Assembly (NCBI GenBank): GCA_963822445.1 | Contig: CAWGHO010000001.1 | Coordinates: 480,001 to 544,000 of the forward strand | Source of the DNA: an uncultured Acidobacteriota bacterium | GTDB taxonomy: Bacteria > Acidobacteriota > Thermoanaerobaculia > Gp7-AA8 | Length of the DNA stretch: 64,000 nt | Direction: 5' to 3' | Shown here: one piece after another, positions 7,628-35,594 of the stretch | Position numbering within the stretch: the stretch's first letter is position 1 | Layout: every line of letters begins with the position of its first letter | The notes under the pieces: model-generated | Seen by the model: the letters and a program-made list of their open reading frames with translations, nothing else | The model's database searches: none | What the model was told of the DNA's origin: nothing | Made by a program: the position numbers and the translations under genes

Positions 7628-7635
7628 ACCCCCAA

Positions 7636-9618
7636 TCACCACCAACGCTTGAAGTTCTTCGGCTTCCGCGCGGGCGCTTCCGGCGTCGTGACGGTCGACG
7701 ACTGCTCCGATCCTTTCGGCACGCGCACCGTCACGCTGCTTTCGCTTGCGTTGCCTGAGAAGTCAGTACAGCGAACGTGAACGAAGTACAGCCGCTCGTC
7801 ACCGTCGTCGCGTTCCGCGCGCAGTTCCAGGCTCAGATCCGACACGAGGTTGAAGTCGTCATCGAGAGTCTGGTTGGACGTCACGTCGAACACGGCACAA
7901 CGGGGCATCGGATCGACGACGTCGCTGGCTTCGACAGTCACCGTCACAGTTGCGAACTTGCTGTTCGGCGGCGAGAGCTCGTCCGGCGTCGCCTTGACGT
8001 TGGAGATCATCGGTGAAAGCGAATCGACGACGGTGACGTCGAAGTCATCCTCGGCGTTATTGCCGAGATCGTCCGTCGCGACGCAATGAACCGTCGTCGT
8101 TCCGAGCGGGAACGTCGAGCCGGACTGCGGATCGCGTGTGATGTCCGGATCCGGATCCGACGTTCCGCCGGCGGTGACAGTGAACGTGACCATGGTGCCG
8201 TCGCCACTCTCCGCTTCCGCAACCACCGCATCCGGCACGTCGATCACGAGCGTCTCGGCCGGCTTGTCTTTCGGTACGCGCACCGTGACGCTGCTCTCGC
8301 TTGCATTGCGCGAGCTGTCGGTGCAGCGAACGTGAACGAAGTACAACCGCTCCTCGCCTTCGAGCTCAGCGCGCAGTTCGATGTTCAGATCCGACACCAG
8401 CTTGAAGTCGCCGTCGATGGTCTGGTTCGACGTTACGTCGAACACCGCGCAACGCGGCATCGGATCGACGAAATCGCTCGCTTCGACCTTGATCGCCACC
8501 GCCACGAATTCGTTGTTCGGCGGCGAGAGTACGTCCGGCGTCGCGGTGACGCTGGAGATCGCCGGCGACACCGTGTCGGCGACGGTGACGGTGAAGGCGT
8601 CCTCGGCCGTATTGCCGAAGTCGTCTTTCGCTACGCAATGAACCGTCGTCGTGCCGATGGGGAAGTTCGAGCCCGACTGCGGGTTGCAGGTGATTTCAGG
8701 ATCCGGATCCGAGGTTCCGTGTGCGGTGACGGTGAACGTCACCACGGCACCATTCGCCGTCTCTGCTTCCGCGGTGATCGGATCGGGAACGTCGATCACG
8801 AGTCTTTGCTCGTCGCTCGTGACTTCGACGGTGAACGTCCCCGTGCCTGTGTTGGCAGACGAATCGGTAGCGCTGCAGGCGACAGTCGTCTTGCCGATCG
8901 GGAAGCGCGACCCTGACGCAGGATTGCACGTCACCTGGAGATTGCCATCGATCGTGTCCGTGGCAGTGGCTTCGAACGTCACGACGGTGCCATCCGGTCC
9001 ATCGGCGCGCACGACGATGTCCTCGGGCACAGTGACGATCGGAATCCCGACGTCGTAGATGAAGATCGACAACCCGCCCTCGGCGCGCTCGCCGAACGAG
9101 TTCGTGGCCACGCAACGCACATGCGTGGTTCCCAGCGGGAACACCGAGCCGGAAGGCGGTTCGCAGGTGACCTGCGGATTCGGATCCCTTCCGCCGTAGG
9201 TCTGAACCTCGTACGTGACCTTCGCGCCTTCCCTGCTCGTCGCGACCATGGCGATCGGGTCCTGCCCAAGGATCATGAGCCGCTCAGGCTCGGGATCGAA
9301 GACCTTGAACGTCGCCGGGCCGGAGTCGCCTGTCGGCCCGCCGAGCACGGTCACGCTGTACGTCCCCGCCGTGACGGCCACCTCGGTAGGCACCCAGACG
9401 TCGACTTTGTCGCCGCTGGCGGCACTACCCTCGACCTCGATCTCACCCGCGGGGCCGGAAAAACGCACCCGATCGCCGAGCTCGGTTCCGTAGATGATCA
9501 AGAGTCGTTCACCGCTGTTCACTGCGATCGTGTCGGGGTCGATGAGGCGAATCGTCCCAGCCGTTGCAGTTGATGCCGCGAGGATCATGAGAAGGCCGAA
9601 CGCGACGTTCTTCATCAT
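7636..9618 (-). CDS. Secreted HYR-domain protein with an internal module duplication
   Basis: Signal peptide MMKNVAFGLLMILAASTATA; four HYR-like repeats (SGSxFPxGxTxVxCxAT/K); ~555-bp duplication of 7715-8250 and 8270-8802. Confidence 0.88.
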   Translation of the reverse strand: MMKNVAFGLLMILAASTATAGTIRLIDPDTIAVNSGERLLIIYGTELGDRVRFSGPAGEIEVEGSAASGDKVDVWVPTEVAVTAGTYSVTVLGGPTGDSGPATFKVFDPEPERLMILGQDPIAMVATSREGAKVTYEVQTYGGRDPNPQVTCEPPSGSVFPLGTTHVRCVATNSFGERAEGGLSIFIYDVGIPIVTVPEDIVVRADGPDGTVVTFEATATDTIDGNLQVTCNPASGSRFPIGKTTVACSATDSSANTGTGTFTVEVTSDEQRLVIDVPDPITAEAETANGAVVTFTVTAHGTSDPDPEITCNPQSGSNFPIGTTTVHCVAKDDFGNTAEDAFTVTVADTVSPAISSVTATPDVLSPPNNEFVAVAIKVEASDFVDPMPRCAVFDVTSNQTIDGDFKLVSDLNIELRAELEGEERLYFVHVRCTDSSRNASESSVTVRVPKDKPAETLVIDVPDAVVAEAESGDGTMVTFTVTAGGTSDPDPDITRDPQSGSTFPLGTTTVHCVATDDLGNNAEDDFDVTVVDSLSPMISNVKATPDELSPPNSKFATVTVTVEASDVVDPMPRCAVFDVTSNQTLDDDFNLVSDLSLELRAERDDGDERLYFVHVRCTDFSGNASESSVTVRVPKGSEQSSTVTTPEAPARKPKNFKRWW

Positions 9619-15402: not shown

Positions 15403-15480
<78 letters not shown>

Positions 15481-17939: not shown

Positions 17940-18000
17940 CATGCGAAAGCGGTCGTCGAGTGGACGGACTCCGCGCGGAAGCAGGGCGATACTTTCGCCG

Positions 18001-18414
18001 ATGGCAACGCGCACGCCGAGGGGCAAGGGAAAGACGTTCACGGAGGAGTTCGGAGAGCGGCTGCGGAGCGCGCGGGAGCGGCGCGGCTTCACGCAGGAGC
18101 AGCTCGCGGAGATGGTCGGCATCACCGCTTCGCGCGAATCGGAGTATGAAAGCGGACGCTTCGCGCCGCAGCTCGAGAAAGCGGCAAAGCTGGCGGTGGC
18201 GTTAGAGGTGTCACTCGATGCGCTGGTTGGACGCGACACACCCGAGGTGACCGAGGACATCCGCGATCCGAAGTTGCGGGCAAGCGTGCGAGAGCTGGAG
18301 GCGACGGCGAACGCGCGCTACCTCGACGCGGCAAGCCTGGCGGTGGAAGGCTTCGCATCGCTCGCGCGACATGACGAATTCGAGTCACGCCGGCCGAGGC
18401 GCCGGAAGCCGTAG
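18001..18414 (+). CDS. XRE-family HTH repressor
   Basis: FGERLRSARERRGFTQEQLAEMVG...YESGRFAP...LAVALEVSLDALVG; divergent from the integrase. Confidence 0.92.
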   Translation: MATRTPRGKGKTFTEEFGERLRSARERRGFTQEQLAEMVGITASRESEYESGRFAPQLEKAAKLAVALEVSLDALVGRDTPEVTEDIRDPKLRASVRELEATANARYLDAASLAVEGFASLARHDEFESRRPRRRKP

Positions 18415-19308: not shown

Positions 19309-19851
19309 TCAGAACATCTGAGGCTGCGCGAACTCGGCGACGTGATCGTGGATGTACTCCTCGGCGCGCGAGCGCACGTCGGCGTCCGCGGACGAGAGAA
19401 GCGTCACGAGGTCGTCGGGCGTCTTCAGCGTCGAGAACGTCTTCGTCGGCGCGACGTACACGACCGCTGGTTTCGAGCGCGCGACGAGACGCGCGACGTT
19501 CACGAGTGTGCCGGTGCTCTGCCCGTCCCACAACGCCAATCCAACGTCGGCTTCTTCGGCCATCGCGGCGTCCTTCGCCGTGAAGAAAGCAAAGTCGCGG
19601 GCACGATGCGGCGCATCGATCGCACGCACGCGCCAGTTGCCGATGTTGTTCCGACAATCGCCGGCGGTGCAGAAGACGAGGACGTTCGGGTAGCGCTGGT
19701 CGGCGAAGTAGGTCTGAATCGCTTTGTCGGCGCCGTTGGCATCGCCGACAAGGATCGTGAGCTCCCGGCGGATCATCTCTTCGAGGCGCGACTGAACCTC
19801 GGCCGGAAGCCGGGAGATTCGTCGAGAACCGGAAAGGAACACTTTCTTCAT
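19309..19851 (-). CDS. SLOG-superfamily (DprA/YspA-like) protein
   Basis: VFLSGSR, LVGDANGAD, KDAAMAEEAD and LWDGQSTGT match the SLOG pattern; ATGA-coupled to the PRTase. Confidence 0.75.
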   Translation of the reverse strand: MKKVFLSGSRRISRLPAEVQSRLEEMIRRELTILVGDANGADKAIQTYFADQRYPNVLVFCTAGDCRNNIGNWRVRAIDAPHRARDFAFFTAKDAAMAEEADVGLALWDGQSTGTLVNVARLVARSKPAVVYVAPTKTFSTLKTPDDLVTLLSSADADVRSRAEEYIHDHVAEFAQPQMF

Positions 19852-20432
19852 ACGCGCCGCGTCTTGGTCAGAGCGAATGCAAAGATGATAGCCGCTCCGG
19901 CGTTGGCGAGCGCAGCGGCGACGGCACCGAGAGTCGCGCCCGAGCGGATCAGGTCGTCCACAAGCAGCACGCGCTTGCCGCCGATCGCCCGCGCGTTCAC
20001 GGTGAGTGCGTCTTTCAGCACGGCTTCGCGTTCGTGGAACTCGCGAAGGTCCTTCAACTCAGCCGCGCCCGGGGCTTTCTTGGAGACCGCCTTCACGACG
20101 GGCACGTTAAAGCGGCGCGCGAGCTCGTCGGCGATCTGGTGAAGCGGCTGAACGCGACGCGTTCGTGTCGGCGGCGCGGGAACGATCACGTCGAACTTGA
20201 TGCGCCAGGTGCGGATGAATTTCTCGGCGATGGTGCCGATCTCCTCGAGCGCGGACGCGTCGTTTCGATACTTCAGGCGGTAGAGCAACTCCCCGACCTC
20301 GGTGCGATGCGTGTCGAATTGCTCACGCCCGAATTCGTCGTGGCCGAGGAACTCGCTGCCCGTGGAGTGAAGGTCAAGGACTCGGCCGTCTGCCCATGGG
20401 CCGTCAATCTTACGAGGGTTCGTTTTAGTCAC
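19848..20432 (-). CDS. ComF-like phosphoribosyltransferase
   Basis: VLLVDDLIRSGATL PRPP-binding loop; LLYRLKY and IVPAPP motifs. Confidence 0.88.
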   Translation of the reverse strand: MTKTNPRKIDGPWADGRVLDLHSTGSEFLGHDEFGREQFDTHRTEVGELLYRLKYRNDASALEEIGTIAEKFIRTWRIKFDVIVPAPPTRTRRVQPLHQIADELARRFNVPVVKAVSKKAPGAAELKDLREFHEREAVLKDALTVNARAIGGKRVLLVDDLIRSGATLGAVAAALANAGAAIIFAFALTKTRRV

Positions 20433-20483
20433 GCTTAAATTGTAGCTGCCGTGGACCAGTGAACATCGCGTCTTCGAAACAGT

Positions 20484-21338
20484 TCACGTGTTAGCGCTTC
20501 GGGCATTCCACTCGGCGGATAGGCGAGCGCGATTGCGCTCGTGTATAAAGCTCGGAATGAGCGGTGCAGCGGCTCGCCGGACGTGATACTCCGACATCAT
20601 CGCGGCCGCTTCAAGAACCGAAATATCCTGTCGTTCCAGAAGCCGGCGAGCTTTTCGCTCACACGCTTCGGCACCGTCGCGAAATCCCTTATACCCGAGC
20701 GCCTGCCGGCCAACGGTGGCAGAAAACGCGAAAACAACAACCGCAATCGCAACACGCGCAGTTGTGTCGAGCGCTGCAACCTGATCCGCCATCTCGATCG
20801 CCACTATGAGACTAATGAAACCAAATGCAAGGAGCATCACGAAGGCGACCGCATATGAGCGGAACATCTCGGCCGCCAAATATTTGCTCCACCACGCAGA
20901 CTCGTGAGTCTGGCGGACAGCACGCGTGGAACCGTGAGCGTCGTTCGCGGCGGCGAAGTATGGCTGGACTGCAGTCTCTCCGGCCTGGCTCTTCGACGTG
21001 ACCCTGGGCAGCGTGAGCCTGAGGTCGGCGATCTCCTCGATTGGAAGTGGCTGGCCGAAGCCTTCGTGCAAGTCGAGTTGCCGGAGTAGCCACTCTGCAA
21101 CGCTCTTGCGTTTCTCGGCCAAGTACGCGGCTATTTCTGCAGCAACTGCAGCCGCGGCGACAATCCAAACAGCGCCACGCGCGTACTCTGCGAAGACAAC
21201 GACCGTCAGACCAATGACGAAAGTGAGAATGCGCAGCACTACCGAAACGATCCAGCGATTCTTCGCCGACTCGAAAAGCAGCCGCAAAAAGATGCGAACA
21301 GAGGTGAGACTGAGCTCAGGTATAGATTGGGAACTCAT
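20484..21338 (-). CDS. Four-TM effector (S-4TM-like) of CBASS
   Basis: Two pairs of TM helices, HESAWWSKYLA and C-terminal APLIPSFIHERNRARL; overlaps the CD-NTase end. Confidence 0.7.
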   Translation of the reverse strand: MSSQSIPELSLTSVRIFLRLLFESAKNRWIVSVVLRILTFVIGLTVVVFAEYARGAVWIVAAAAVAAEIAAYLAEKRKSVAEWLLRQLDLHEGFGQPLPIEEIADLRLTLPRVTSKSQAGETAVQPYFAAANDAHGSTRAVRQTHESAWWSKYLAAEMFRSYAVAFVMLLAFGFISLIVAIEMADQVAALDTTARVAIAVVVFAFSATVGRQALGYKGFRDGAEACERKARRLLERQDISVLEAAAMMSEYHVRRAAAPLIPSFIHERNRARLSAEWNARSANT

Positions 21339-22320
21339 TGCCGAACACCGCACGCCAAGTTGTCTTCGCAGCCATGGAATGCCCGCGACGGTCGAGCGCT
21401 ACGGCGCGTTGCACCGCCTGGGAAGTCTTTCGTACTGCGAAGCGGTATCGTGCCTTCGTAGCGAGATTCACGTCGCGATCAAGCGCAGGTCCAAGATTCT
21501 TAGGATCGGGACAGGCCGCCATCAGGTGCGGATCTATGTTGGCAAAGAACCGAGCGAGATAGTCAGGAACAGACAAAGACGGAGGCGCGCCGTCAAAGAG
21601 ATTCAGTACTAGCGTCTCCAGATGGTACGACCCGAGCACCGGCTTGTGAGTTCGCTTGTTCCAGTACTTGATGAGTCGAATCGTGGGCCGCAGGAGACCG
21701 CCGTGGGCAGCATTGCAGCGGTCGATTCGTGCTGCATCAAGGCGCGGATCGGTCAGTGACCACTGCGCGCGGCCGTTGGGGATCGCGAAGACGAGATCGC
21801 CGGATTCGAGACGAATCGGGATCGCTGGTGCGATATCGAATGCCCAAGGCGTTGATGAGAGGTCAACGTTTACGACGTGCATATCTTTGCGAACGTCAGA
21901 GCGTCTGTAATGCGGCAGAGCCTGTACGTGATCTCGGAGCGCAAAAAGAAGCCGAGTCGAATTTAAGAAACCATTCTGCGCAAGCGTTGATAACGGATTC
22001 AGCGGATGCACGTGCAGCTGGTACCCGCCAAACGGCCAAGTCCTCAGCTCCGTACCCCAACCATCAAACAGCAGGAGGAGATCGAGATCGTCGAGAGGTT
22101 GCAGTTTCGTTCCTCGAGCGAAAGATCCGGACGGCAACCAGTAGCCGGTCGGAGCCGGGAACATAGTGCTGTCGAGGATGCGGTCGATGAGAAACTGCTG
22201 ACTGGATTTGGCGCGTTCCACTTGGGTTGATTCGAGATCGACGTGCTCGCGTCGGAACCTTGCGAATGCGTCGGCCACAGGAAAAAGGGACGGAGGAGGA
22301 CGAAGCGCGAATGTGCTCAT
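21316..22320 (-). CDS. CD-NTase / SMODS nucleotidyltransferase (CBASS cyclase)
   Basis: SGSFARGTKLQPLDDLDLLL (GS...DxD), FDIAPA, IPNG..W..TDPR, IRLIKYWN and SYHLE. Confidence 0.9.
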   Translation of the reverse strand: MSTFALRPPPSLFPVADAFARFRREHVDLESTQVERAKSSQQFLIDRILDSTMFPAPTGYWLPSGSFARGTKLQPLDDLDLLLLFDGWGTELRTWPFGGYQLHVHPLNPLSTLAQNGFLNSTRLLFALRDHVQALPHYRRSDVRKDMHVVNVDLSSTPWAFDIAPAIPIRLESGDLVFAIPNGRAQWSLTDPRLDAARIDRCNAAHGGLLRPTIRLIKYWNKRTHKPVLGSYHLETLVLNLFDGAPPSLSVPDYLARFFANIDPHLMAACPDPKNLGPALDRDVNLATKARYRFAVRKTSQAVQRAVALDRRGHSMAAKTTWRAVFGNEFPIYT

Positions 22321-22330
22321 CTACATGATC

Positions 22331-24202
22331 TCACTCTGCCGGTACCGACTCAGGCGTCAGCTGAGCGACTCCTGATGCGGGCTGCAGTTTGCCAAGTTTT
22401 GAGCCGAGTTCGCGCTTCACAGAGTTGTACACGTGGTAGCGGGGCATTACGACCGCAGTTAGTGCTTCTTCGGAGATGGCCTTCTCGATGTGTTCTGGTG
22501 ACCATTCGCGTGAATTACGAAGAGCTTGAGCGCCAATGACGGTCTCGACCAGAGATTGCTCGAACCACCCATGAACAGCCTCCGTCACTAGATCGCGGAT
22601 CGCAGTGGACGTCGGAAGGTCATGGCACCATTTATCGATCATGTCAGTGAAGACTCGAAAATCGGCATTGATGAGAAGGTGATTGAGTTCGGGAATGTAT
22701 CGTCCTGCGCGATCCTCAAAGTCCCCCGGCTCGCGCGTACCGTTCTTAACGCTGACCCAATCAACTTTGGGGAATAGATCCGGCCGGACGCGATCTCCCG
22801 GCGCACCGTCTGTTTTAAGAAAGACGGCATATATCCCTCCCGCCTGGCCACCCTTTGTCCCGGACCGTGAAGTTGATGCGGTCGTTGAGCCACCGGCACC
22901 TCTCGGTTCACCACCGCGAACCGTTTCGTCGGGGTCGACCCGCAGAGACCCGTTTGGCGTTACCCGATAGCGGCTGACTTTATAGAGATCTAGAATTTGC
23001 TTGAGCCGTTCCCGGATGGATTGAGAGTGATCCGATGCGGAGGATGCTGCCGCTTTTTCTTCGATCAATTGCTGAATTGCCTTGGGCATGGCAGCTCGAA
23101 ATTCCGAGGCCCAGTCGCTCCACGGCAAGGGTTCTCTATGGATGAGAAGCTGCGTGCGAGCCGTGTTCGTCGTAATGAGCTTGCCATCCTCGCCCAGCGG
23201 TTCAACGTAGATGACAACTTGCCGATGGCCAAAAAGTACCCCGAACTGCTGTAGCTTCGCCATTCCTGGGCGCGCCGTCGCAAGTTCATAAAGCTCACCG
23301 CGGTAGAGCGCGGCGACATGACCGGATGATTCGATAAAGCCGGAGTTCTGAGATAGCGAGTCGTCGTCGCGAAGAATCCACCAATGAGCTGTGGCATTTG
23401 ACAGGGAGACCGTGCCGGATCCGACAGCGTGCTTCTGCAGATACTCGCGCTGGCCCGTTAGCGTGCGAAGCAAGTTGCGATCTTTGTCGGAGCGTGGTGT
23501 TTTCCAGCCCTCGCGCGCCTTGACTGTTATGCCGGAAGGAAATTCAAAAAAGCGACTGTTGAGATACTTGCTGATCCATCGCGATGGAGAGGAGGCCCCG
23601 GGCGGCGCTGTCATCGTATCGGCATTCGGCGAATTGCCCATGAGCAACACCATGGTGCCGTGATCAGCGATTAGCGGTGGACGAACGGTATCGTCAACTT
23701 CGACAAAGTGAGTCCAACCGCCATCGGGTAGCGGAAACTGCCGCAGTCCGTACTGACCGGTTTCAGGATCGCGCCACAAATGAAGCATCGTCCCGCGGCC
23801 GTTCTTCCAAGATAGGTAGATGAGGCCGTGGTGATTGCGCGTGGCAGCGGCGATCTTTGCTCCGACACCAAAGTTCCCCGTGAGTGACTGCTCGGAAACG
23901 GACGACGAGAGCTGGTTAAGGTACTTAACCATTTCGTCGCCTGTCATCCCCTCGCCGGTGTCGGTAATTGAGAGCTTGTAGGCGCCCGTTTCGTCTAGCT
24001 CAAACGAGTTCCAGTCAACGTCCCATACGATCTCGCCCGTACGATCAGGCGTGCGCTGAATGGCCTCGATGGCATTTTGGGTCAGCTCACGGAGAAACTG
24101 CAGGGGATGACAGTCTTCGCCCAGACGGTCGAGCAGGAAACCAGTGTTGGCTACTTTGAGTGGGTAAGTCTTCTCGGACGACAAGCGGAGCGGCTTCGCC
24201 AT
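22331..24202 (-). CDS. GHKL (MORC/Hsp90-like) ATPase with an unknown C-terminal region
   Basis: LRELTQNAIEA, ITDTGEGM, GNFGVGAK and HGTMV motifs; GGAGG SD before ATG 24202. Confidence 0.85.
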   Translation of the reverse strand: MAKPLRLSSEKTYPLKVANTGFLLDRLGEDCHPLQFLRELTQNAIEAIQRTPDRTGEIVWDVDWNSFELDETGAYKLSITDTGEGMTGDEMVKYLNQLSSSVSEQSLTGNFGVGAKIAAATRNHHGLIYLSWKNGRGTMLHLWRDPETGQYGLRQFPLPDGGWTHFVEVDDTVRPPLIADHGTMVLLMGNSPNADTMTAPPGASSPSRWISKYLNSRFFEFPSGITVKAREGWKTPRSDKDRNLLRTLTGQREYLQKHAVGSGTVSLSNATAHWWILRDDDSLSQNSGFIESSGHVAALYRGELYELATARPGMAKLQQFGVLFGHRQVVIYVEPLGEDGKLITTNTARTQLLIHREPLPWSDWASEFRAAMPKAIQQLIEEKAAASSASDHSQSIRERLKQILDLYKVSRYRVTPNGSLRVDPDETVRGGEPRGAGGSTTASTSRSGTKGGQAGGIYAVFLKTDGAPGDRVRPDLFPKVDWVSVKNGTREPGDFEDRAGRYIPELNHLLINADFRVFTDMIDKWCHDLPTSTAIRDLVTEAVHGWFEQSLVETVIGAQALRNSREWSPEHIEKAISEEALTAVVMPRYHVYNSVKRELGSKLGKLQPASGVAQLTPESVPAE

Positions 24203-24436
24203 CAAAATCCTCCATCGCGGGTCGGTAGGTGTGCGACCTCCCCACGTTTGAGTGTCGCGGCCGGCCGGCGGCAATGGGGAGCAACTCGCTCGCGATCGCG
24301 TGCCGGGCCAAGTCAACGACTGTTACAGCAAAGTATACCTGACGCAGCGGAGGGTCGAGCGGAGATGATCGCTACGAGGGAAGCTACGAGTTGCCGCACC
24401 GGCGAGATGCCTCAAATGCCAACGCGGGGGGGCGCC

Positions 24437-24746
24437 GGCGCGGCGCTTGCCCGCGGGACACGCGCGTGCACCACACGGACACCCGCTGCAAGCGACGTGA
24501 CGGCGCATGGGCGGTGGAAACGTGCGGCCGCGACGAGCGAACCCACAGGCGATGGGAGGGTGGGAAGTGGCGGCGCCGTTTTTGCGGCCGAGCCGCGCCG
24601 CTTTCATCCCATCGTTCTGCAAAAACGGTGACGCCACGAGGGGGCCGGCGATCTACACCCGGTGGACAACGCGACGCGCACGCAAGGTGCGTTGAACGAT
24701 CGACGAAGCGACCCATGTGCGTGATGGGCGGGCCGTGGGCGGAACA
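24437..24746. repeat. Hairpin-repeat cassette 1 (2 units + terminal motif)
   Basis: GGCGC-N5-TTGC...GCAA-N5-GTGAC at 24437-24501 and 24572-24632; terminal motif at 24718-24746. Confidence 0.8.
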
Positions 24747-24807
24747 TAAGAGAGAACTGGCGATCCCCGCGGCAACACCGCTCCATGCGATGCGCGTGCG
24801 GCTGCAA

Positions 24808-26295
24808 TTAGGTCGTCCGGCACGGGCATTGTGCGTAAATCTCACCACTGCCGCATGGGCAGGGACCGTCGGCGACTTTACGAGCCAGGGTTTGGAGAAA
24901 TTCCGGCGGTCTTTCGTTATATTCCGCGGGAAAGATCATTTGCGACTCGACTGGGCGTCTCTTACGGTGGAGTTCTCCCGCGGTTTGTGCGTCTTCTGCC
25001 GACCAGATGCGTGCGTTGAAGTACATGAGGTCTTCGGAACGATCAACATGATTGAATCCGGCCTCCCCCGCGATCCCAATGATGTCCGTGGCGCTGGGGT
25101 GGCGATGCTTGAGAAGGCGGCACTCGGTTTCCAGGATCGCGGCACGACGTTCGCGATATTCTTCGTACGTCATTGACGCAAGTCGCGGAACGAATAGGAA
25201 GATCCAGCACGTCTCGTCTGCGTCACTTGGCACCAAACAACGTGTGTACGTATCGGTGGGAGTTGATTTCGTAAGACCTTCTAGCCACATCCGCCCCAAT
25301 GTTCGGCGACGCACTCGGCCCTCGCGAGCCATGAAGCGAAGAATAAGCTCTGAATCACTAAAGGAATCGTGCGGGTATGCAAACCATCGCCGGTCGTCGA
25401 GCGTGTTCGTAGCTGAAGCGTCGATCATGCGGTCCCACGCATAACTGAGATCGTTCAGTTCTTGCTCGTGCTTCCACCAACCGGAAGCCTCTAGTTGTTG
25501 CCACTGACCTTCGTCAATTTGGATCCCTTCCGACGTTAACTCCACGGCGAAAACACGCTGACCGAAGGGGCCGACGTTAGGCAGGTAGGCCGCCAGAAGG
25601 TCCTCCTCTGAACGCGCAAGCAAGGGTATCGGCGACCGCAAAAGTTCTTCCTTCGCGGCAAGATAGTCGACGAAATCTGTGATGGTGTCGAGAGAACGCA
25701 GCACGATTGGAAGGGACGCGTCGTCGAAGATGTGGACGAACGTTTTTGTGGGACATAGTTCCCCGGCCGTGAAAGGTTTTTTCAGGAGGTCGTCTTCTGC
25801 AAGCATGTTTGTGACTACGAGTCCGCCGGTACCGCCGAGAGCTTGGCGGGTTCGCTGGACTGAGCCGTGCGCCACTACTAGCAGATGGTATTTTGCGTCT
25901 GCGAATGAAGGGATGGACACCGGGAATCTTTGCTTACAAGCTCGGTCAACAAAGATTCGATCAGGATGATCTTTGACCCATCGTTCGGCACCCCGCAGTT
26001 GCTTCTCCGCGGCAAGGACACTTCGTCGGTACCACCGACTCCAGTCGAGTTCTGAGTTCTCGGTCGATGGGAAAACGCAATGTTTGTCGGAAAAGATCAG
26101 TATATGGTTTTCAAACACGACCAAGAGGTCGCAGAGTTCCTTCCCCTCACCGGTTTGACTGACACCCTTGTCTTGGTAGACGCAAGGGTAGCTCCATAGA
26201 CGTAGAAACGTGCCTTCGCAGAGTTCAGCGACAAATCTTTCGGATTCCGTTGTCGGCGAAGACTTCCTGATCGGATCGCGTTCTCGTTCGTCCAC
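24808..26295 (-). CDS. NERD-like nuclease-domain protein with a C-terminal SEC-C motif
   Basis: GKELCDLLVVFENHILIFSDK (PD-(D/E)xK-like) and CPCGSGEIYAQC. Confidence 0.7.
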   Translation of the reverse strand: MDERERDPIRKSSPTTESERFVAELCEGTFLRLWSYPCVYQDKGVSQTGEGKELCDLLVVFENHILIFSDKHCVFPSTENSELDWSRWYRRSVLAAEKQLRGAERWVKDHPDRIFVDRACKQRFPVSIPSFADAKYHLLVVAHGSVQRTRQALGGTGGLVVTNMLAEDDLLKKPFTAGELCPTKTFVHIFDDASLPIVLRSLDTITDFVDYLAAKEELLRSPIPLLARSEEDLLAAYLPNVGPFGQRVFAVELTSEGIQIDEGQWQQLEASGWWKHEQELNDLSYAWDRMIDASATNTLDDRRWFAYPHDSFSDSELILRFMAREGRVRRRTLGRMWLEGLTKSTPTDTYTRCLVPSDADETCWIFLFVPRLASMTYEEYRERRAAILETECRLLKHRHPSATDIIGIAGEAGFNHVDRSEDLMYFNARIWSAEDAQTAGELHRKRRPVESQMIFPAEYNERPPEFLQTLARKVADGPCPCGSGEIYAQCPCRTT

Positions 26296-27574: not shown

Positions 27575-27670
27575 AGCCACAGGCGCACACGTCGCGCATG
27601 CACGAGGACGGGCGTGGAAGCGCGCGGGCTCCGGGACGCCCGAAAGGCCACAGGCGAGGCGGCGCGGCGT

Positions 27671-28161
27671 GGCGCGACCGTTGCCGCGCGCACGGATCGC
27701 ATTCCTTTTCGCGCGCGCCTGCAACGGGCGTGACACGGCGCGGGCTTCACGAGGATCCGGGAAACGTGACGAGCTCGCGGGGTCGGGCGCGGGCAGCAAA
27801 AGCAATGTCGTCGGCGCGCCGGCGCGGCGTTTGCCCGCGCTGACGAGGCGCCACGCGAAAGAAGCCCGCTGCAAACGGCGTGACCGCGCGCGGGAGGGGG
27901 AAACGTGCAGCCGCGCAGAGCAAACCGACGGCGCGGGAGGGCGTGCAGCTGGCGGCGCCGTTTTTGCGGCTGGGCCGCGCCCGTTTCACCATGCCGATCT
28001 GCAAAAACCGTGACACCAGCGAGGGGGCGCGCGCTACCGCGGTAGCAGCGCACTGTAAACGAAACTTGCGCGCCGCGCGGGCGCGCGAAGGTGCGCTGCG
28101 CGTCGCGCGAACATCGCCATGCAACGAGCAGTTGCGTGATGGGCGGGCTGTGGACGGAACA
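27671..28161. repeat. Hairpin-repeat cassette 2 (3 units + 31-bp terminal motif)
   Basis: Units at 27671-27734, 27821-27884 and 27954-28014; terminal motif at 28131-28161. Confidence 0.82.
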
Positions 28162-28343
28162 AAAAAAATGAACGAACAACAATAGGGATTGTGACTATGG
28201 GACAAGCGTGCTCGCCGCGCGAGCGCGAGGACCCCGGCGCACCAGGAGCGCGGACAACCTCATGACCCGCACAAGCCACACGGGCGGGCGGTGGAGCGGT
28301 GCCTGTCGCGATGCCCTTCCCTACTTGCGGGGGCGGGAGCCGC

Positions 28344-28771
28344 GGCGCGGCCGTTGCGTGCGGGCGGCGCGCGACAGCGCGACGTCCCGCATGCAACGGA
28401 CGTGACGCGGCGAGGGCGGGGGGCGGGCGGGTGGTCCGCGATGCGCGTGCCACTCGCGCGGGGGGAAGCGGCGCGCCCGTTGCCGCGAGCACGGCGGCTT
28501 CATCGCGGTCCGAGCATGCAACGGGCGTGACGCGAGGGCGGGCGGGTGTCGCATCCGCGCCGAACGTGCCACTCGCGCGGGCGGGAGCCGCGCGGCGCGA
28601 CCGTTGCCAGCGAAGCACGGCCGCTTCATCGCGGTGCAAGCGTGCAACGGGCGTGACGCGGCGAGGGTGGGCGGGGTCGGGTCGGACGTGTTCGCGAGCA
28701 ACACGCGCCGCGGATCGGCGCATGTCGATCGGAGCGTGCAGTTGCGTGATGGGCGGGCTGTGGACGGAACA
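28344..28771. repeat. Hairpin-repeat cassette 3 (3 units, ~125-bp period, + 31-bp terminal motif)
   Basis: Units at 28344-28406, 28470-28531 and 28594-28657; terminal motif at 28741-28771 is identical to 28131-28161. Confidence 0.85.
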
Positions 28772-29136
28772 GAAAAGCCTCACGCGGCATCACGTGCTGC
28801 TGCATCAATGTCGGCAAATGTTCCTCTTCGACGACATCCGTGTCATACGCGATGACTTCACGTTGCCGGTTTCGCTGCGCGAAGTGATCGCGGGTCGGAA
28901 TCGCTCGTGCGGCTCTCGGCGTAAAGCGTCGGCGAATCGCACGTATCTGCGCGTCGATCGGATTCAAGCGACGCGGTGTGGTTTTCGCTCGTCAAGCCGT
29001 CGACGCGAAACGACCCGGCATCGTCCGCTATCGATCCCGGCGCGCTTTTAAGTCGTCGCCGGTGGCTTCGCGGTGCTCGAGCTGGTGCGCGAAACGGCTC
29101 CGGCGCACGTCGAAATGACGCTTGGGGCTTCCGGGT

Positions 29137-29453: not shown

Positions 29454-32400
29454 CTATGCCGGGATCAATTCATTGTCGACCGCTTTGATCACGATCCCAT
29501 CCACCGCCGCGAGCAATTGAGGCGTGAGGTTGTTGCGCACAACGGTTAGGGGCTCGAAGGACATCGGTTCAGCTTCTTCGATCATCCTGCGCAACGTTGC
29601 GAGAAACTCCATCAAATTGCGAACGGACTCGGCCCCGTCATCGAAGAGCGATACAGGCAGCATCTCCGCGATCTCAGACGACCTCTGCAAACGATGAATC
29701 AGTTCCGATGTCGCATTGCTCCAGTGCTCTTGCAGCACCACCGTTCCGACACCAGTCGGAGGTGGAGCTTCGTCGATCCCGAGTAGCGCTTCGACCTCGG
29801 CGACTGCGAGCGCGATCTCCGCACGAAGATTCCGCGCCGTCTCTGCGAGCGTCTGCGGATGCAGCGGAATGCCGAGTCGTGTCCAGACGGAATCGTCGAT
29901 GGGAAGAGGCAGGAGCCGCCATCCCGGGAGTTCGTCATCAGGCTGCGGAAGCGTCGAAATCATGAGCGTGCGGCGCGTCGGCTCGAGCGCCTTCCCGCGA
30001 ATCAGGCCGACAAAATGAACTTCTCCCCAAACGAGGTCGAGCGCGTAGCGTTCGACTGCTTCGAAGTCGGGCGGTGGACGAAGGGTGTCGATGGTTGTCG
30101 CAATCACCGCAGCAAGACCAGCGTCGGTGTCAGCCGCGGTATCCACGTCGAGGACGACCCACAGTCCCGCTCCATCCGACCACCGGTCGATCTCCGCATG
30201 AATTCTGGAGCGTGCTTGCGTTAGCGCTTCGAGCCGGCGCGTGAGCTCACGCCGGTACTTCGAGATGACCTGATCGATCTTGGCGCGGGATTCCCGCGTA
30301 GCATCGGTCGGGTATTGCCGTGGGTCGTAGGCGAACTGATACCAGACGGCCCAAAGATTCCATAGCCATGTCTGTTCCTCGTCTTCCAGCGACGGAAGAG
30401 AACCTTGCGCGAACCGCCCGAATCGGGATCGGAACTCATCCTGAAACCGTCGAAGTGCCTTCACGGCATCGGCCAGTCGCCACGTGGGCAGGTGGGGAGT
30501 TTTTCCGCCGGCATGTTCTTCGAGGAGGGCTTGCGCGCGCTCAATCCCGTCGGGAGAAGGACGCCCCAGATCTGGGTTCGCGCGAAGATATGGAATTGCA
30601 GCGCTCATGAAATCGGAAAGCGCATTCGCGTAGTCGTAGAGCGCTTTCAGAAACTCGCCAATCTCATCGCGCGGGTCGACCGTTCGCGCTTCGCTGCGCA
30701 GCCTCACCTCGTAGCCCAGCTCGTCCACAGCCGCGTTCGGAGGCTTCGGAAGCCGGCGCAGCGCTTCGTTGAGCGCAAGCCACTCATCGAGGTTCGCTCC
30801 GAGCTCGAAGATGTGCTTGGGTTTGTCGCGATTGAAGTACTTGCGCAGCGCGGAAACGACATCACGCGCGAGCGCGACGACACGCTGGCGCAATTCCAGA
30901 ATCGCTTTCGCGTATTCACCCCAAGGCAGATAGACGCGCGCGGCGTGCGAAAACAGAAGATGCAGACGTGTGGCCCACGGTACGGGAAACGACTGCTTTG
31001 GAATGCCCTTCTTCTCAGACGGATCGTGCGCGAAGATGGCCATCCCCGCGACGCCGCATGCTCGAGCGCCGAAGGTGCTCTCGTCCGGGAAGAGACGGCG
31101 CAAGACATCGACCCGCCGGATGGTCTCTCCATGAAGATCCAACGGCGCAGACGGAGCGGGCGACATGACGTAGTACGCCATGACTTCACCATCGTCGATG
31201 TCAATCGCGAACGTCGCTGACTCCTCCTGGAACCGCGCGATCAGCGTCTGACGGAGAGACTCAAAAGCCTCCGGCCGCGCGTCACGGGATTGGAACGAGA
31301 GCGCGAAGACGAAGTCGGCACATGTCTCCAGCGAAACATCTGTCTGGCTTGCCGTCAGACGTTGGGTCGCACTCGCCATCGCCGCCGGGTCAACGACGTT
31401 CCAGGCGATCGCCCAGAAGAGCATTTCCGCCACCGCTGACCAATCGGATGAAGGAGTCGCGAGCACGGACTTGCCCGCACCTCCGAGCCAAGCGCGCGCT
31501 TCTTCGAACACAGGCTCGTTCGATGGAATCCGCGATTGCACATCGGCGTACCACTCCCGCTGACTCGGCACCATTCCGAAGATCGTGTCGAAATTGTCCG
31601 AGAAGCCGGGGATGAATTGTTTCAGGCCTGCAGGGTCGAGGATGCCCCATGCGATCTCGGCTCCGCCCACATGCACGCGAATCTCCTCGAGGATGGCCCC
31701 ATGTTGCGCGCGGTATCGCTGGATTCCGCGCCAGAGCAACGCGCGAACGACGCCGACGGCCCCCGTCATCGTTTCGGGTTTGAATGTGCGAACGTGCAGC
31801 AAGATCGCCTCGGCTTCCGCTTCAGACCGGCGCGCGAATCCGTGCAGGAGAAACGCTTCGAGGTCGGCCTCATCGAGCGACGCCATCGCTGCAATGGCCG
31901 CCTCGGACCACGATGGGTCGAGCTCATCCCGTGTGAGGAGATCGGCCGTGAGTTGCGACCGCAGAGGATGTAGCCCTTCGGCATAGAGTCGGTCTTTCGA
32001 CAACCGGATCAGGTACTCCTTCTCGAACAACTCCAGGGTGTGACTCGGCAGAGCAAGTCCGAGATCTGCCACAGCCGTCGGGAGTCGCACGCGGCCGCCC
32101 ACCGACGAAGCCACGGCGATGCGACGCAACAGATCCAGCTCTGCGGGCTGCAACTCGCCGCGCCGCACGTCCTCCTTCAATCTCCGGATTTGGCTGTCCA
32201 GCGTCTTGCCGAGGGCTTCGCCCTTCGTGACGAGATACGTGAATTCCATGAGCGGGCCGGCTCCGCCGAACTTCGTCCAGGCGTCCGCGAAATCGAGGAA
32301 CTCTCCCGAGACCTCACGGCGCTGGAGATCAGCGAACACGAGCGCCGCTTCCTCTTTATCGAGCGCGAGATCGATCTCCGCGGCGGACAGCGTCACGCCG

Positions 32401-33509
32401 GCGTTTTTCGCCCGTGTCCAATCCTCCTCTCGGATCGTGACGAGCACCTGTACATCCTCCAAGTCTCGGATGCCATCGACGACCTGCGCCCATGCGGTTG
32501 CACGCGGCGTTGCGTCCAACCAGACCATCGTCCGGACGCCGATCCGCGCGTGAGCCTGCAGCGCCAGAATCACGTTGCGCGCATGGCGGATGTCCTGCAA
32601 TTCGGCGATCTCGAAGCGCCACGTCGATGGCGGCGCTTCCAGGAGATACCGGCAGGCCAGCGCGGTCTTTCCCTGTCCGGATGCTCCGTGGATCACCACG
32701 ACGTTCGACGCCTGGAAGCCGCTCTCGATCGCCCTCAGCTTCGCGTCGCGCCGGACATCCACGCCCGCAAGCACGTGATCGAAGCGCGCGGAAACACCGT
32801 CGTAAAACTGCTGCGCGAGTTTTTCGCGTTCGGTGGCGTCGATCTCACGCTCGATCAGCGGACGAATGGTCCGGAACCATTCTTCGTGATGCGCCGCCTC
32901 CTCGGCGATGTACTGGCCAACGGCGAGCAGTCGCGCCTGAACGTCGGCCGCCGTCACGCGCCGCCGATCCTCCGTCGCGCGAGCCAGCCATCCGCTGAGA
33001 TAGAGAAACGCCACATCGGCATTCGCGCTCGTTACGGTGGCGGAAAGCTGATCGAGCACAACTCGCTCGATGTCCGCTTCGCTCACTTCAGTAACGCGGA
33101 AGGCTGCGGAAAACGCATCGGCCTCGCCGGCATCGAGCCCATACACCTTCAGCGCGTCACGCGCATCGTCAGATGGGCTTTCGAGGAGACGAAGGCTCAG
33201 GCCGACGTCACCGAAGCTGACGACATGCTGGAGCGATTCAGGCGCACTCCGCAGGCGTTCTTTGGCGCGGATGAAGAAGGAGTCGTCCTTGCTTCGCAAC
33301 CTGGAAGGCGTCAGCGGTGCGCTCTCGCGCGCCTTGACCTGGATGGCCTCGATCAGGTGGCCGCTCTCATCGAAAATCTCGAGATCTTCCGTACCCTCGA
33401 GCTGAATGCTGTATCGCTCCCGCGAGGCGTCCGTCAGCAGCCGGAAGAGCGCGTACAGATGCTGACGTCGGAAACCCCGTAGCGCGGGCGGCGCACCGGC
33501 AAGTGTCAT
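29454..33509 (-). CDS. Nuclease-STAND-like P-loop NTPase with a long helical C-terminus (Avs-like defence protein, 1351 aa)
   Basis: N-terminal GAPPALRGFRRQ...EGTEDL...AIQVK (Cap4/DUF4297-like PD-(D/E)xK), Walker A HGASGQGKT, Walker B-like VWLD; ATGA overlap with the upstream gene. Confidence 0.8.
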   Translation of the reverse strand: MTLAGAPPALRGFRRQHLYALFRLLTDASRERYSIQLEGTEDLEIFDESGHLIEAIQVKARESAPLTPSRLRSKDDSFFIRAKERLRSAPESLQHVVSFGDVGLSLRLLESPSDDARDALKVYGLDAGEADAFSAAFRVTEVSEADIERVVLDQLSATVTSANADVAFLYLSGWLARATEDRRRVTAADVQARLLAVGQYIAEEAAHHEEWFRTIRPLIEREIDATEREKLAQQFYDGVSARFDHVLAGVDVRRDAKLRAIESGFQASNVVVIHGASGQGKTALACRYLLEAPPSTWRFEIAELQDIRHARNVILALQAHARIGVRTMVWLDATPRATAWAQVVDGIRDLEDVQVLVTIREEDWTRAKNAGVTLSAAEIDLALDKEEAALVFADLQRREVSGEFLDFADAWTKFGGAGPLMEFTYLVTKGEALGKTLDSQIRRLKEDVRRGELQPAELDLLRRIAVASSVGGRVRLPTAVADLGLALPSHTLELFEKEYLIRLSKDRLYAEGLHPLRSQLTADLLTRDELDPSWSEAAIAAMASLDEADLEAFLLHGFARRSEAEAEAILLHVRTFKPETMTGAVGVVRALLWRGIQRYRAQHGAILEEIRVHVGGAEIAWGILDPAGLKQFIPGFSDNFDTIFGMVPSQREWYADVQSRIPSNEPVFEEARAWLGGAGKSVLATPSSDWSAVAEMLFWAIAWNVVDPAAMASATQRLTASQTDVSLETCADFVFALSFQSRDARPEAFESLRQTLIARFQEESATFAIDIDDGEVMAYYVMSPAPSAPLDLHGETIRRVDVLRRLFPDESTFGARACGVAGMAIFAHDPSEKKGIPKQSFPVPWATRLHLLFSHAARVYLPWGEYAKAILELRQRVVALARDVVSALRKYFNRDKPKHIFELGANLDEWLALNEALRRLPKPPNAAVDELGYEVRLRSEARTVDPRDEIGEFLKALYDYANALSDFMSAAIPYLRANPDLGRPSPDGIERAQALLEEHAGGKTPHLPTWRLADAVKALRRFQDEFRSRFGRFAQGSLPSLEDEEQTWLWNLWAVWYQFAYDPRQYPTDATRESRAKIDQVISKYRRELTRRLEALTQARSRIHAEIDRWSDGAGLWVVLDVDTAADTDAGLAAVIATTIDTLRPPPDFEAVERYALDLVWGEVHFVGLIRGKALEPTRRTLMISTLPQPDDELPGWRLLPLPIDDSVWTRLGIPLHPQTLAETARNLRAEIALAVAEVEALLGIDEAPPPTGVGTVVLQEHWSNATSELIHRLQRSSEIAEMLPVSLFDDGAESVRNLMEFLATLRRMIEEAEPMSFEPLTVVRNNLTPQLLAAVDGIVIKAVDNELIPA

Positions 33510-35299
33510 CGGCCCTGCCCCTCCTCGATGCGGCCAAATACCACCACACACTTGAGCAGCAGCCACCAAGCATAGACGGCGGTCTCACCGTAGAACGCAC
33601 TCGTTTCCAACAATCCGTGCGCCAGATCGTTGCGGAGATTTCCGCCGAAGCGATTGACGAATACCGCGGTCATGGTGAAGACCAGATCCTCACCGAGGAT
33701 CTTTGTAGTCTGAGGATCGCGCAGCACGGCGTTGAGATCCGGAAGCTCCTCGTATCCCTGTTTCGTCCACGCAACCGGCACTTTGCCGGATCGCACGAGC
33801 AGGATCCGGATCGAATGCTCGACCTGCGGCACGAGCACGTGCGTAGCGGTGAGGAAGTCGCCCATCATTCCGGCTTGAAGACCAAGCGCCCAGATCGACT
33901 CCCGGCTTCGCGGAATGAATTCGCTGAGCGACGCGAGTCTCAGAAACGGTTGCGCGGTGATCACATGCTCATGAACGATCTGATCCCGAGCGGGATCGAT
34001 GAACCCGAAAACGGTAACTACACGGCGTTGGCGAAGATCTTTGAACATTCGTGACTTGAGGGCGTGGTTGGCTTCGTCAGCATCCGGATTGAGCGGGCCG
34101 AAACCGGCGAGCGGCGCACCTTCGTCGTTCACCAGGACGGTGGGAAAGAGCTGATCCGAAATGAATGTCTTCGCGCTCTCGAGTACATCCTTGCGTAGCG
34201 CATCGACCGACGGAATCGGCAGGATGTCCGTGAGAGCAACGATGGCCTCGTCGAGAGAGAGACCTGCCACTCGTTTCCTCGCCGCGGCGACGCATTCGGT
34301 GACGTCCACCTTCCCGCCGATCGGCTTCATCTCACTCACGCCGCGGCGCTGCAGTTCTTTGTACCGCGCGAGAAGTGAAGAGACGCGATCCTTCTGATTC
34401 TGGAGGCGCCTCAAGGCAGCGATTCCGTGGCCATACATCGTTGCCGCAACACCGAAATCAGGAGACGCCGACGTCGCGACGAGTTCTCCTTCCTGAATGT
34501 ATGTCTCCCCGAAACCGGCGCGGGCCGCGTTTTCGGCAGCGTCGTCGTGACTCATGCGATGCCATTCGGCAGCAACGATCCAGCGCTGACGCGCAACGTG
34601 GTATTTAGATCGATCGCCCTGCGCGGCCTCTTCCTCGGCCCGCCGCGCGCCCTTCTCCGCAAGGGCAGCATAGGTTGTGGCGTCGCCACCTGCTCGCGTT
34701 TCGATCAATGCCTCCATCAACTTCACGGAGAGAAACCGAGGATCCTCGCCATTGAGCCGTCGCAGCAACTCATCCACCGCACTGACGACCTGTTGGAAGA
34801 GTGGGCCGCGACCCAGGCGCGCCGCAAGGCGCAGCGCGCGATTGTAGTAATCCGCCGTCGCCATCCAGCTTTCGTCGTTCTCGTGCTCTTTCGCAAGCTT
34901 CACGTATGCATCGACGGCACGCCGCGCGTACGTGTGATCGGATCTCGCTAGCCAGACGTAGTCCGCCAGCCTCGCCAGCGCCGCCGGCCGATCCACACGC
35001 TCGACGAGCGTCTTCAGCAGCTCGACCTGGGGATCGGTCAAGGTCTTGGGGTTCACCCAAAACGTATTCGCCTCCATCCCGCTCTCTCTGAGCGCTCCGA
35101 CGGAAGGGAAGAACACCCGCGCGACGAGTCGAATCCACTCCTCGAGTGCTGCATCCTCTCTTTCCTGCGCCACTCGAACCAGCGGAAAGAGGGCGGACGA
35201 ATACTTCATGGCCTCGTCCTCGCCCGCACCTGTGATGGCGGCGAGGATCAGGCGTACTTCATCATCTGTCAGTGGCCGCAGGTTGGGTTCGTTCGGCAA
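33506..35299 (-). CDS. DUF4209-like HEPN-domain protein
   Basis: Helical N-terminus; LVPQVEHSIR and GGNLRNDLAHGLL (Rx4H). Confidence 0.8.
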   Translation of the reverse strand: MPNEPNLRPLTDDEVRLILAAITGAGEDEAMKYSSALFPLVRVAQEREDAALEEWIRLVARVFFPSVGALRESGMEANTFWVNPKTLTDPQVELLKTLVERVDRPAALARLADYVWLARSDHTYARRAVDAYVKLAKEHENDESWMATADYYNRALRLAARLGRGPLFQQVVSAVDELLRRLNGEDPRFLSVKLMEALIETRAGGDATTYAALAEKGARRAEEEAAQGDRSKYHVARQRWIVAAEWHRMSHDDAAENAARAGFGETYIQEGELVATSASPDFGVAATMYGHGIAALRRLQNQKDRVSSLLARYKELQRRGVSEMKPIGGKVDVTECVAAARKRVAGLSLDEAIVALTDILPIPSVDALRKDVLESAKTFISDQLFPTVLVNDEGAPLAGFGPLNPDADEANHALKSRMFKDLRQRRVVTVFGFIDPARDQIVHEHVITAQPFLRLASLSEFIPRSRESIWALGLQAGMMGDFLTATHVLVPQVEHSIRILLVRSGKVPVAWTKQGYEELPDLNAVLRDPQTTKILGEDLVFTMTAVFVNRFGGNLRNDLAHGLLETSAFYGETAVYAWWLLLKCVVVFGRIEEGQGR

Positions 35300-35339
35300 G
35301 CGTCGTAGTGTCGCCGATTCGCAACGCCTATGGCAGCCT

Positions 35340-35537: not shown

Positions 35538-35594
35538 AAAGACGTGCGGACGAGCTGGGATGAGTCCGTGCCACGGAAGGTGTTCTAGTGTCGT

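Follow-up and report, generated by a model that had tools for sequence, protein, structure and literature searches.

In the cyclic-oligonucleotide-based antiphage signaling system (CBASS), a CD-NTase makes a cyclic oligonucleotide upon infection, and an effector then damages the membrane, aborting the infection. In the classification of CBASS types reportedly given by Millman et al. in 2020, type I systems are said to contain a CD-NTase and an effector only. The subject of this work is a stretch of 64,000 nucleotides (nt) from an uncultured bacterium of the Acidobacteriota (positions 480,001 to 544,000 of contig CAWGHO010000001.1, assembly GCA_963822445.1), referred to below as the window. On its minus strand, at 20484..24202, a CD-NTase gene and a gene for a 4TM effector stand behind a gene for an ATPase of the GHKL fold. 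The reading that we put forward, holding belief and doubt in equal measure, is that the ATPase is an autonomous gene of defense islands that heads an operon with exchangeable, co-expressed cargo, the cargo here being a CBASS.

Proteins of the GHKL fold have been placed beside CBASS before. In 75 of 443 cases, CapK, an HTH-STAS-GHKL kinase, lies with CapS upstream of CBASS (PMC13373217). The preliminary description of this DNA held that GHKL ATPases are not CBASS ancillaries; that statement is outdated, the architecture of CapK being, of course, a different one. Prokaryotic MORC and paraMORC proteins are GHKL+S5 ATPases of restriction-modification contexts (Iyer, Abhiman and Aravind, 2008, PMC2292703). 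Tiamat and VcSduA/paraMORC3 couple an Hsp90-like or GHKL ATPase to nuclease domains (bioRxiv 10.64898/2026.09.30.754977; PMC12137116).

The first of the three genes in the window encodes an ATPase of the GHL (Hsp90/MORC/MutL) type, 623 amino acids long, at 22331..24202. Its open reading frame (ORF) is open from 24316 (22331..24316, 661 amino acids). The ATG at 24202 was chosen as the start, with a Shine-Dalgarno (SD) motif GGAGG 6-10 nt upstream and in agreement with the starts of homologs. Ten nucleotides then separate the ATPase stop codon (TGA, 22333-22331) from the ATG (22320) of the CD-NTase, the CBASS oligonucleotide cyclase (334 amino acids, 21316..22320). The effector gene (289 amino acids, 20484..21353) starts at GTG 21353 or at ATG 21338, overlapping the end of the CD-NTase gene by 38 or 23 nt.

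The GC content dips to 0.56-0.60 across 20000-24000, with flanks of 0.64-0.67, and at third codon positions the GC content (GC3) of ATPase, CD-NTase and effector amounts to 0.614, 0.609 and 0.632, respectively. The spacing, the overlap, the common strand and the similar, lower GC content that had first drawn attention to these genes are all confirmed in the sequence. No terminator-like or promoter-like site was found between ATPase and CD-NTase, and the layout suggests that the three genes are probably co-transcribed. The same gene order is found in close relatives, on Logan contigs from four soil-metagenome runs of four studies. One such contig, of 4907 nt, spans 19708-24614 with 365 differences (~93% DNA identity), and short Logan contigs bridge the CD-NTase/ATPase junction. 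These are near kin, of course, and no independent evidence. Similarity to related strains stops near 24645.

The assignment of the pair to CBASS was borne out by PADLOC, whose Cyclase model PDLC00802 matches the CD-NTase at 8.6e-69 and whose 4TM model PDLC00724 matches residues 22-284 of the effector at 4.8e-13. The CD-NTase also matches Pfam SMODS (4.7e-10) and NCBIfam CBASS_cyclase_b (9.3e-36, under that model's cut-off). Its GS...DxD...D active site is intact, with G65, S66, D78, D80 and D162 invariant in an alignment of 12 sequences. The translated effector has four hydrophobic stretches, and we take this protein (20484..21353) to be of the S-4TM type. Among the ORFs picked in 15989-46620, PADLOC found no Cap2/Cap3, HORMA/TRIP13 or QueC/TGT/OGG beside the operon; a weak E1-E2/E2 match (E 4e-4) is the SEC-C tail of an ORF at 36438-37046, 14 kb away.

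Relatives of this CD-NTase are few: 12 proteins at E<=1e-10, one distant match in 24 genomes of the same genus, and four in 400 genomes sampled from the phylum. The ATPase is found at none of five loci with such relatives, 1.5 kb having been examined on each side. At one locus (L113), a CD-NTase (31% identity) stands with a 4TM effector (30%), and the ATPase is absent from the 1.5 kb upstream. Because no ancillary gene adjoins the pair in the window, and because the pair at L113 does without the ATPase, CD-NTase and effector are read, from their sequences, as a complete and self-sufficient minimal type I CBASS. The CBASS itself is genuine, and nothing about it is out of the ordinary.

By sequence, the ATPase gives matches to Pfam HATPase_c (1e-7) and HATPase_c_3 (1.2e-5), weak NCBIfam matches of the sacsin and HtpG types, and marginal GHKL matches in the PDB (E>=0.14). 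PADLOC assigns it to none of its families at E<=0.01. Residues ~15-390 hold a GHKL domain and a transducer/S5-like domain, ~428-458 a disordered linker, and ~460-610 a conserved C-terminal beta+helical domain of no recognizable fold. The ATP site is intact in its Bergerat motifs (ExxxN, DxGxG, GxxGxG); E39, N43, G83, G112 and G114 are invariant in 85 homologs, and D81 and G85 are conserved in at least 90% of them.

An AlphaFold model of the ATPase (mean predicted local distance difference test score, pLDDT, 88.3) was compared with known folds by VIA-align. Here, the best matches are GRP94 (Z 19.8; 298 residues, root-mean-square deviation 4.6), SMCHD1 (Z 19.1), MORC3 (Z 18.5), MORC2 (Z 18.0), MutL (Z 16.0) and TopoVI-B (Z 15.3). 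These GHL matches span both domains, model residues ~17-390. Histidine kinases and SpoIIAB, in contrast, match the GHKL domain only, at Z <=7.5. Foldseek agrees, with TRAP1/Hsp90 at 4e-12. The GHKL/MORC-like label that the ATPase had been given therefore stands, and the model predicts a protein of the GHL clamp type, with an ATP site and a transducer domain. Residues 390-623, modeled separately (pLDDT 80.3), gave no convincing match to a fold in the PDB (best VIA Z 5.2; no Foldseek match at E<=1e-3), and the fold search recognized no nuclease, TIR or HxH in the C-terminal domain.

Proteins of this kind are many. Among 8000 candidates scored, 2061 belong to the family at E<=1e-5, and 1991 representatives of 50%-identity clusters match at E<=1e-3, with a typical length of ~606 amino acids. 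The best 120 family proteins are all 585-632 amino acids long, share 59-98% identity and are named from several phyla; no longer, fused forms were found in the family, which is weak evidence. Full-length homologs occur in none of the 24 same-genus genomes and in 5 of the 400 genomes of the phylum sample. Look-alike clusters in the ESM Atlas show HATPase_c_3, and some of their members are labeled viral. Viral contigs gave 38 distant relatives (22-38% identity) in an alignment-based scan and none with the protein query alone, and a plasmid collection gave one relative, at 54%, in an unannotated stretch. Judged by these sequences, the family is large and made up of self-contained single proteins, sporadic in occurrence and spread horizontally. 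It is unnamed, very widespread, MORC/Hsp90-like and at home in defense islands, and it has no PADLOC model.

What stands beside these ATPases speaks to their role. Loci were collected from genomes (35), metagenomes (72), distant viral contigs (38) and the phylum sample (4), L166 being left out throughout; the PADLOC scans of flanks leave out 79 flank ORFs of loci L085-L112. In six-frame scans by hidden Markov models, a CD-NTase was found at none of 146 other ATPase loci; these scans used home-made profiles built from 4 cyclase domains and 17 CD-NTases, which divergent CD-NTases may escape. The four additional loci of the phylum sample have no cyclase, and more than 90% of the surveyed loci have no cyclase of any kind. 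Nor did tblastn match the CD-NTase, effector, phosphoribosyltransferase (PRTase, discussed below) or 495-amino-acid neighbor of the window to any of the 107 close loci. No neighbor is conserved, no neighbor family being found at more than 3 of 35 genome loci.

The preliminary description had proposed a possible new CBASS subtype, with a check of ATPase homologs for linkage to CD-NTases. In the six-frame scans, none of the 146 other loci shows that linkage, and the ATPase is therefore probably not a general CBASS ancillary. As a general rule, the subtype is unsupported; no neighbor is constant, and CD-NTase and 4TM effector also occur without the ATPase. The PADLOC check proposed at the same time recognized cyclase and effector and gave the ATPase no family.

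The neighbors that are found are those of a defense island. Upstream are PD-T4-6 kinase, PDC-S31, PDC-M30/M41, AriA, dCTPase, Mrr, Dcm+Vsr, HEPN and AbiTii; downstream are Hachiman, PDC-S21, SoFic, PDC-S28, Cas1 and mad3; PIN, RES, IS elements and integrases also lie in the flanks. Immediate 3' genes were counted at 73 distinct loci having at least 400 nt downstream. A co-directional ORF starts at -45..+40 nt of the ATPase stop in 22 of these and 41-300 nt downstream in 32, while 19 have none within 300 nt. This pattern fits a gene that stands alone in defense islands. As a separate observation, one metagenome contig (L045 and L047) carries the same ATPase context twice, ~11 kb apart, and the context is met again in L046 and L003; it comprises three genes upstream of the ATPase, one of them for a GajB/UvrD-like helicase, and suggests a larger repeated or mobile element.

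The ATPase gene also brings its own 5' end. The conserved leader of the gene lies at 24203..24315 on the minus strand. It contains the SD motif GGAGG at 24209-24213 and a hairpin at about 24220-24238, which in this clade reads GGTCG...CGACC. The window and the loci L043 and L041 share about 110 conserved nt ahead of the start. Across 83 distinct leaders, a hairpin with the consensus GAGAGGT-CGC...CY-ACCTCTC stands 8-12 nt before the SD motif; it thus lies between the promoter region and the SD motif of ATPase family genes in many phyla.

RNAalifold gives this hairpin 6 pairs, with compensatory changes in all 6. Pairing holds in 84.8% of cells versus 69.0% in shuffles (0/500). For covariation, the score of 0.522 compares with 0.250 in shuffles (0/500) and with 0.10-0.21 in slid controls. 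With the covariance model R1, the sole site at E<0.1 in the window's own genome is the leader (33.5 bits). Rfam 15 has no match at the leader of the window or at the leaders of 36 loci. RAGATH-28, tried at the window leader, stays below threshold (11.9 bits against a gathering score of 45.3, E 7.9). The hairpin is a candidate for a new cis-regulatory RNA. The conserved, covarying leader implies that the ATPase gene carries a regulated 5' end of its own, one that would express any cargo coupled to it.

The slot on the 3' side of the ATPase has, in fact, been filled in different ways within one clade. In the ATPase tree, the two sequences of the window pair and P0005, an ATPase of 77% identity, are at the base of a clade of nine rows (support 100/99), in whose nested part are L043, linked to a pyrimidine cyclase system for antiphage resistance (Pycsar), and L041. 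The slot holds CBASS in the window, Pycsar in L043, and two genes of unassigned family in L041. At the last of these loci (ATPase 79% identical), an ATGA overlap leads from the ATPase into genes for 200 and 552 amino acids at 6860-9032, neither belonging to a known family. These are candidates for a cargo or defense module of a new kind, standing where sister lineages have CBASS or Pycsar. The tree suggests an old ATPase/CBASS block with later exchange of cargo, or else repeated capture.

Taken as a mechanism, the reading of an autonomous ATPase with exchangeable cargo would run as follows. ATP-driven dimerization of the N-terminal GHKL domains would close a clamp, by analogy with Hsp90, MORC and MutL. 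The clamp, formed by transducer and C-terminal domains, would by the same analogy close on a ligand, either DNA or a phage protein. The ATPase would in this way have a defense or conflict function that does not depend on the cyclase. Behind it, in one co-directional unit, the CBASS pair would ride as cargo, the CD-NTase signaling infection by its cyclic oligonucleotide and the effector damaging the membrane to abort the infection, as is known of CBASS. Since the 3' slot is exchangeable, the promoter and leader of the ATPase gene would set the expression of whichever cargo fills it. We infer, then, both a defense function for the ATPase and a mechanism independent of that of the CBASS.

Several observations weigh against this reading. 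The early screens of neighbors picked the longest ORFs first, which, in this GC-rich DNA, drops genes that overlap the end of the ATPase or lie under long antisense ORFs. This hid the cyclase PycC in L043 and in L102, and negatives of the early screens can be trusted only as far as the six-frame scans reproduce them. Because of this, results of "no cyclase" that came from the picker are superseded by those scans.

The six-frame scans found five distinct class III cyclases at the 146 loci, and four of these come directly after the ATPase on its 3' side, in the same orientation; the fifth, 5 kb off (L007), is an unrelated case. In L043, which is identical to L001 and has an ATPase of 80% identity, the GTG of PycC (PADLOC 3.2e-23, Pfam Guanylate_cyc 1e-9) overlaps the ATPase stop, and PycTM and a bSEFIR gene follow. 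In L102 (ATPase 49% identical), the layout is like that of L043, with a PycC of a different cluster (2.6e-65) and a PycTM (Pfam 3.7e-12). Both PycC genes have 4-nt overlaps with the ATPase. The two remaining cases come from full-length ATPase relatives at 22-23% identity on contigs classified as viral. There, at 7859-9970 of L136 (the same as L137) and at 7955-10006 of L151, the gene behind the ATPase, overlapping it by 11 nt or set off from it by 56 nt, encodes a membrane protein of ~700 amino acids that combines CHASE2 with a class III cyclase and also matches PADLOC PycC models (~3e-24).

How often would this be expected? Pycsar is rare, and two independent cases among 73 loci therefore exceed what we would roughly guess, without computing it, at ~0.1. 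Likewise by rough estimate, uncomputed, four of five cyclases in the position next to the ATPase is well beyond what chance would give with systems this rare. The cyclase adjacency looks non-random. The repeated occurrence of minimal, translationally coupled cyclic-nucleotide modules behind the ATPase is a genuine pattern, and an unreported one; full-text searches for literature that connects an ATPase of this kind to CBASS or Pycsar gave only the CapK/CapS work.

The window's own operon also counts here. The three genes are alike in composition (GC3 0.61-0.63). The sole close relatives of the CD-NTase are P0271 and P0272. P0271 (97% identity) shares the contig of 4907 nt with the ATPase P0001 (98% identity). 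P0272 (54%) and the ATPase P0005 are each found on exactly one Logan contig, of 25,202 nt; very probably, the two share this one contig and form a second, diverged ATPase/CD-NTase pair. The basal position of P0005 and the window in the tree is consistent with long co-inheritance of ATPase and CD-NTase.

These points feed the alternative that survives best, in which ATPase and cyclase module work together, the ATPase being either an infection sensor or regulator that turns the module on or keeps it off, or a second effector that answers its signal. The locus would then belong to an ATPase-associated class of cyclic-nucleotide defense operons, whose members lacking a cyclase use other or unlinked outputs. 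Three kinds of cyclase (CD-NTase, PycC with PycTM, and the CHASE2-cyclase) stand directly 3' of such ATPases, mostly with translational coupling, and the linked systems are all minimal, lacking the known genes for sensors and ancillaries. There is, moreover, a precedent for an ATPase as regulator: type III CBASS uses TRIP13. With cyclases 3' of the ATPase in four other contexts, and with a probable second pair (77%/54% identity), a role in sensing or regulation stays plausible, and the placement before cyclic-nucleotide enzymes hints at partnership.

Against partnership stands, above all, the large majority of loci that have no cyclase. Further, the linked cyclases have unrelated folds (a Pol-beta nucleotidyltransferase in one case, a class III cyclase in the others), which would make one specific protein contact unlikely. 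CD-NTase and 4TM effector are found without the ATPase, and other genes tightly coupled to its 3' end lie outside nucleotide signaling (PD-T4-6-like kinase, DUF900 hydrolase, Schlafen/AlbA_2, DUF4062). For P0005 and P0272, the evidence extends to a contig that is very probably shared and not to adjacency of the genes. On balance, we regard partnership as possible, and hold it with reserve. The suggestion made at the outset, that the ATPase might be an independent defense gene, fares correspondingly: it fits most of the family, but the repeated adjacency to cyclases is not plain chance.

A bolder form of the same idea would make the ATPase a plug-in sensor or gatekeeper placed before structurally unrelated cyclases, with the leader hairpin as a new riboregulator of a suicide module. 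This we consider rather unlikely. If it were true, CBASS and Pycsar operons would gain a new, ATPase-associated class.

Least probable by far is mere packing of a defense island, in which ATPase and CBASS are separate transcription units joined by insertion and share no regulation: family members do sit among many unrelated defense and mobile genes, 11 of the 30 loci scanned have a tRNA or tmRNA gene in their flanks (in the window, a tRNA-Asp is at 15403-15479), and tight coupling at 22 of 73 loci is presumably close to the ordinary rate for bacterial gene pairs. With a gap of 10 nt, however, any promoter between the two genes would have to lie within the ATPase coding sequence, and nothing terminator-like intervenes. 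GC3 is alike across the three genes and not beyond them, the block has been kept in relatives at ~93% DNA identity and probably at 77%/54% protein identity, and L043, L041 and L102 show stop/start overlaps of the kind usual in operons.

The choice matters in either case. To the question of how minimal CBASS and Pycsar sense infection, and how they stay silent without it, this ATPase family, coupled translationally to such modules in several independent lineages, brings a concrete candidate: a sensor or regulator acting upstream, open to experimental test. If, as in the autonomous reading, the ATPase is independent, the family becomes a strong candidate for an unnamed single-gene defense system of the MORC/Hsp90 type. 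Such a class links bacterial immunity with the eukaryotic MORC, SMCHD1 and sacsin-like proteins.

Other genes of the window surround the operon. Downstream of the effector gene by 51 nt begins, on the minus strand, a ComF/PsyrT-like PRTase (19848..20432), which matches Pfam Pribosyltran (1.6e-10), the PADLOC PsyrT C-terminus (1.2e-18) and ShosT (4.6e-8). Its stop is overlapped by 4 nt by the start of a nucleoside 2-deoxyribosyltransferase (NDT)-like ORF of 180 amino acids (19309..19851, minus strand), for which the Pfam match to Nuc_deoxyrib_tr (E 1.1e-3, 19.5 bits) is below the cut-off of 28.8, and which has no PADLOC match. The GC3 of the PRTase (0.785) differs from the 0.61-0.63 of the three operon genes, and because of this composition the PRTase and its NDT-like companion (0.818) are probably a module separate from the CBASS operon. 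They may be a nucleotide-centered two-gene module of their own, with host-like GC3 of 0.79-0.82.

On the other side, GC-rich direct repeats (up to 0.74; 30-80 nt) occur at 24410-24780 and 27650-28780. Ahead of the ATPase gene they take up the space between genes, and they also fill a gene-poor stretch of 2 kb; the break of synteny near 24645 falls inside them. Between them, a low-GC ORF of 495 amino acids (24808-26295, minus strand, GC3 0.587) ends in a SEC-C-like Cys motif. Pfam and NCBIfam give it no family and PADLOC no convincing one, and no homolog lies beside other ATPase loci. Further upstream, 29454-36437 holds more genes of the defense type. A protein of 1371 amino acids, LmuA-like at its N-terminus (1.3e-11) and equipped with an nSTAND NTPase5 domain, is followed by a PDC-S39 protein (2.6e-136; DUF7380 and DUF4209) and a PDC-S64-like ORF (3.3e-20). 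A CapH/RmrA-like ORF with a helix-turn-helix (HTH) lies at 17941-18414, and the tRNA-Asp gene may mark an island edge.

How, then, does the locus compare with the known systems? Type I CBASS is matched in the CD-NTase with its intact site, in the overlapping 4TM gene that comes next, and in the absence of the known ancillaries. Unlike type I CBASS, the pair in the window is preceded at 10 nt by a GHL ATPase of 623 amino acids and of the same composition, and has the PRTase/NDT-like pair 51 nt behind its effector. Pycsar is alike in that a complete PycC+PycTM occupies, in L043/L001 and L102, the slot that CBASS has in the window; it is unlike in that no class III cyclase adjoins the window ATPase itself.

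CapK with CapS, a pair described as 'controllers of adjacent pathways', resembles the window in that the gene for a GHKL-fold protein stands just before immune operons of various kinds, CBASS among them (Chambers et al., 2026, PMC13373217). CapK, however, is an anti-sigma-type kinase of HTH-STAS-GHKL form, and CapS is always next to it. The window ATPase was rejected as a CapK. Pfam shows neither HTH nor STAS in it, the next gene is the CD-NTase, and no CapS-like gene is present. Its fold, too, is that of a GHL clamp with transducer, the anti-sigma kinase SpoIIAB reaching just Z 6.3, and many members of its family have nothing downstream.

Tiamat (TmtA) and VcSduA/paraMORC3 share with the window ATPase a single-protein defense led by an Hsp90-like/GHKL ATPase (bioRxiv 10.64898/2026.09.30.754977; PMC12137116). 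The difference appears to lie in the C-terminal part: the window ATPase has just 623 amino acids, and its C-terminal domain gives no match to a nuclease-like fold. Identity with Tiamat (Hsp90-like ATPase, DUF3684 and PD-(D/E)xK) was rejected, Pfam finding the ATPase domain only and no DUF3684/NOV_C. Identity with Shedu type I-D (GHKL-DUF4263, VcSduA) is unsupported, with no match to DUF4263/PD-(D/E)xK in Pfam or PADLOC and a best C-terminal fold match of Z 5.2.

Closest in architecture, compared by description (PMC2292703), are the paraMORC families. Here, too, a GHKL domain with intact motifs is joined to an S5-like transducer and to a C-terminal extension specific to the family, and occurrence is widespread and sporadic, with lateral mobility. 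Unlike the paraMORC families, the window family has restriction-modification genes beside only a few of its loci, and its C-terminal part has no recognized nuclease, TIR or HxH. At those few, nevertheless, the ATPase adjoins Dcm+Vsr, methylases or SF2 helicases (L009, L084, L021), in the manner of the paraMORC proteins.

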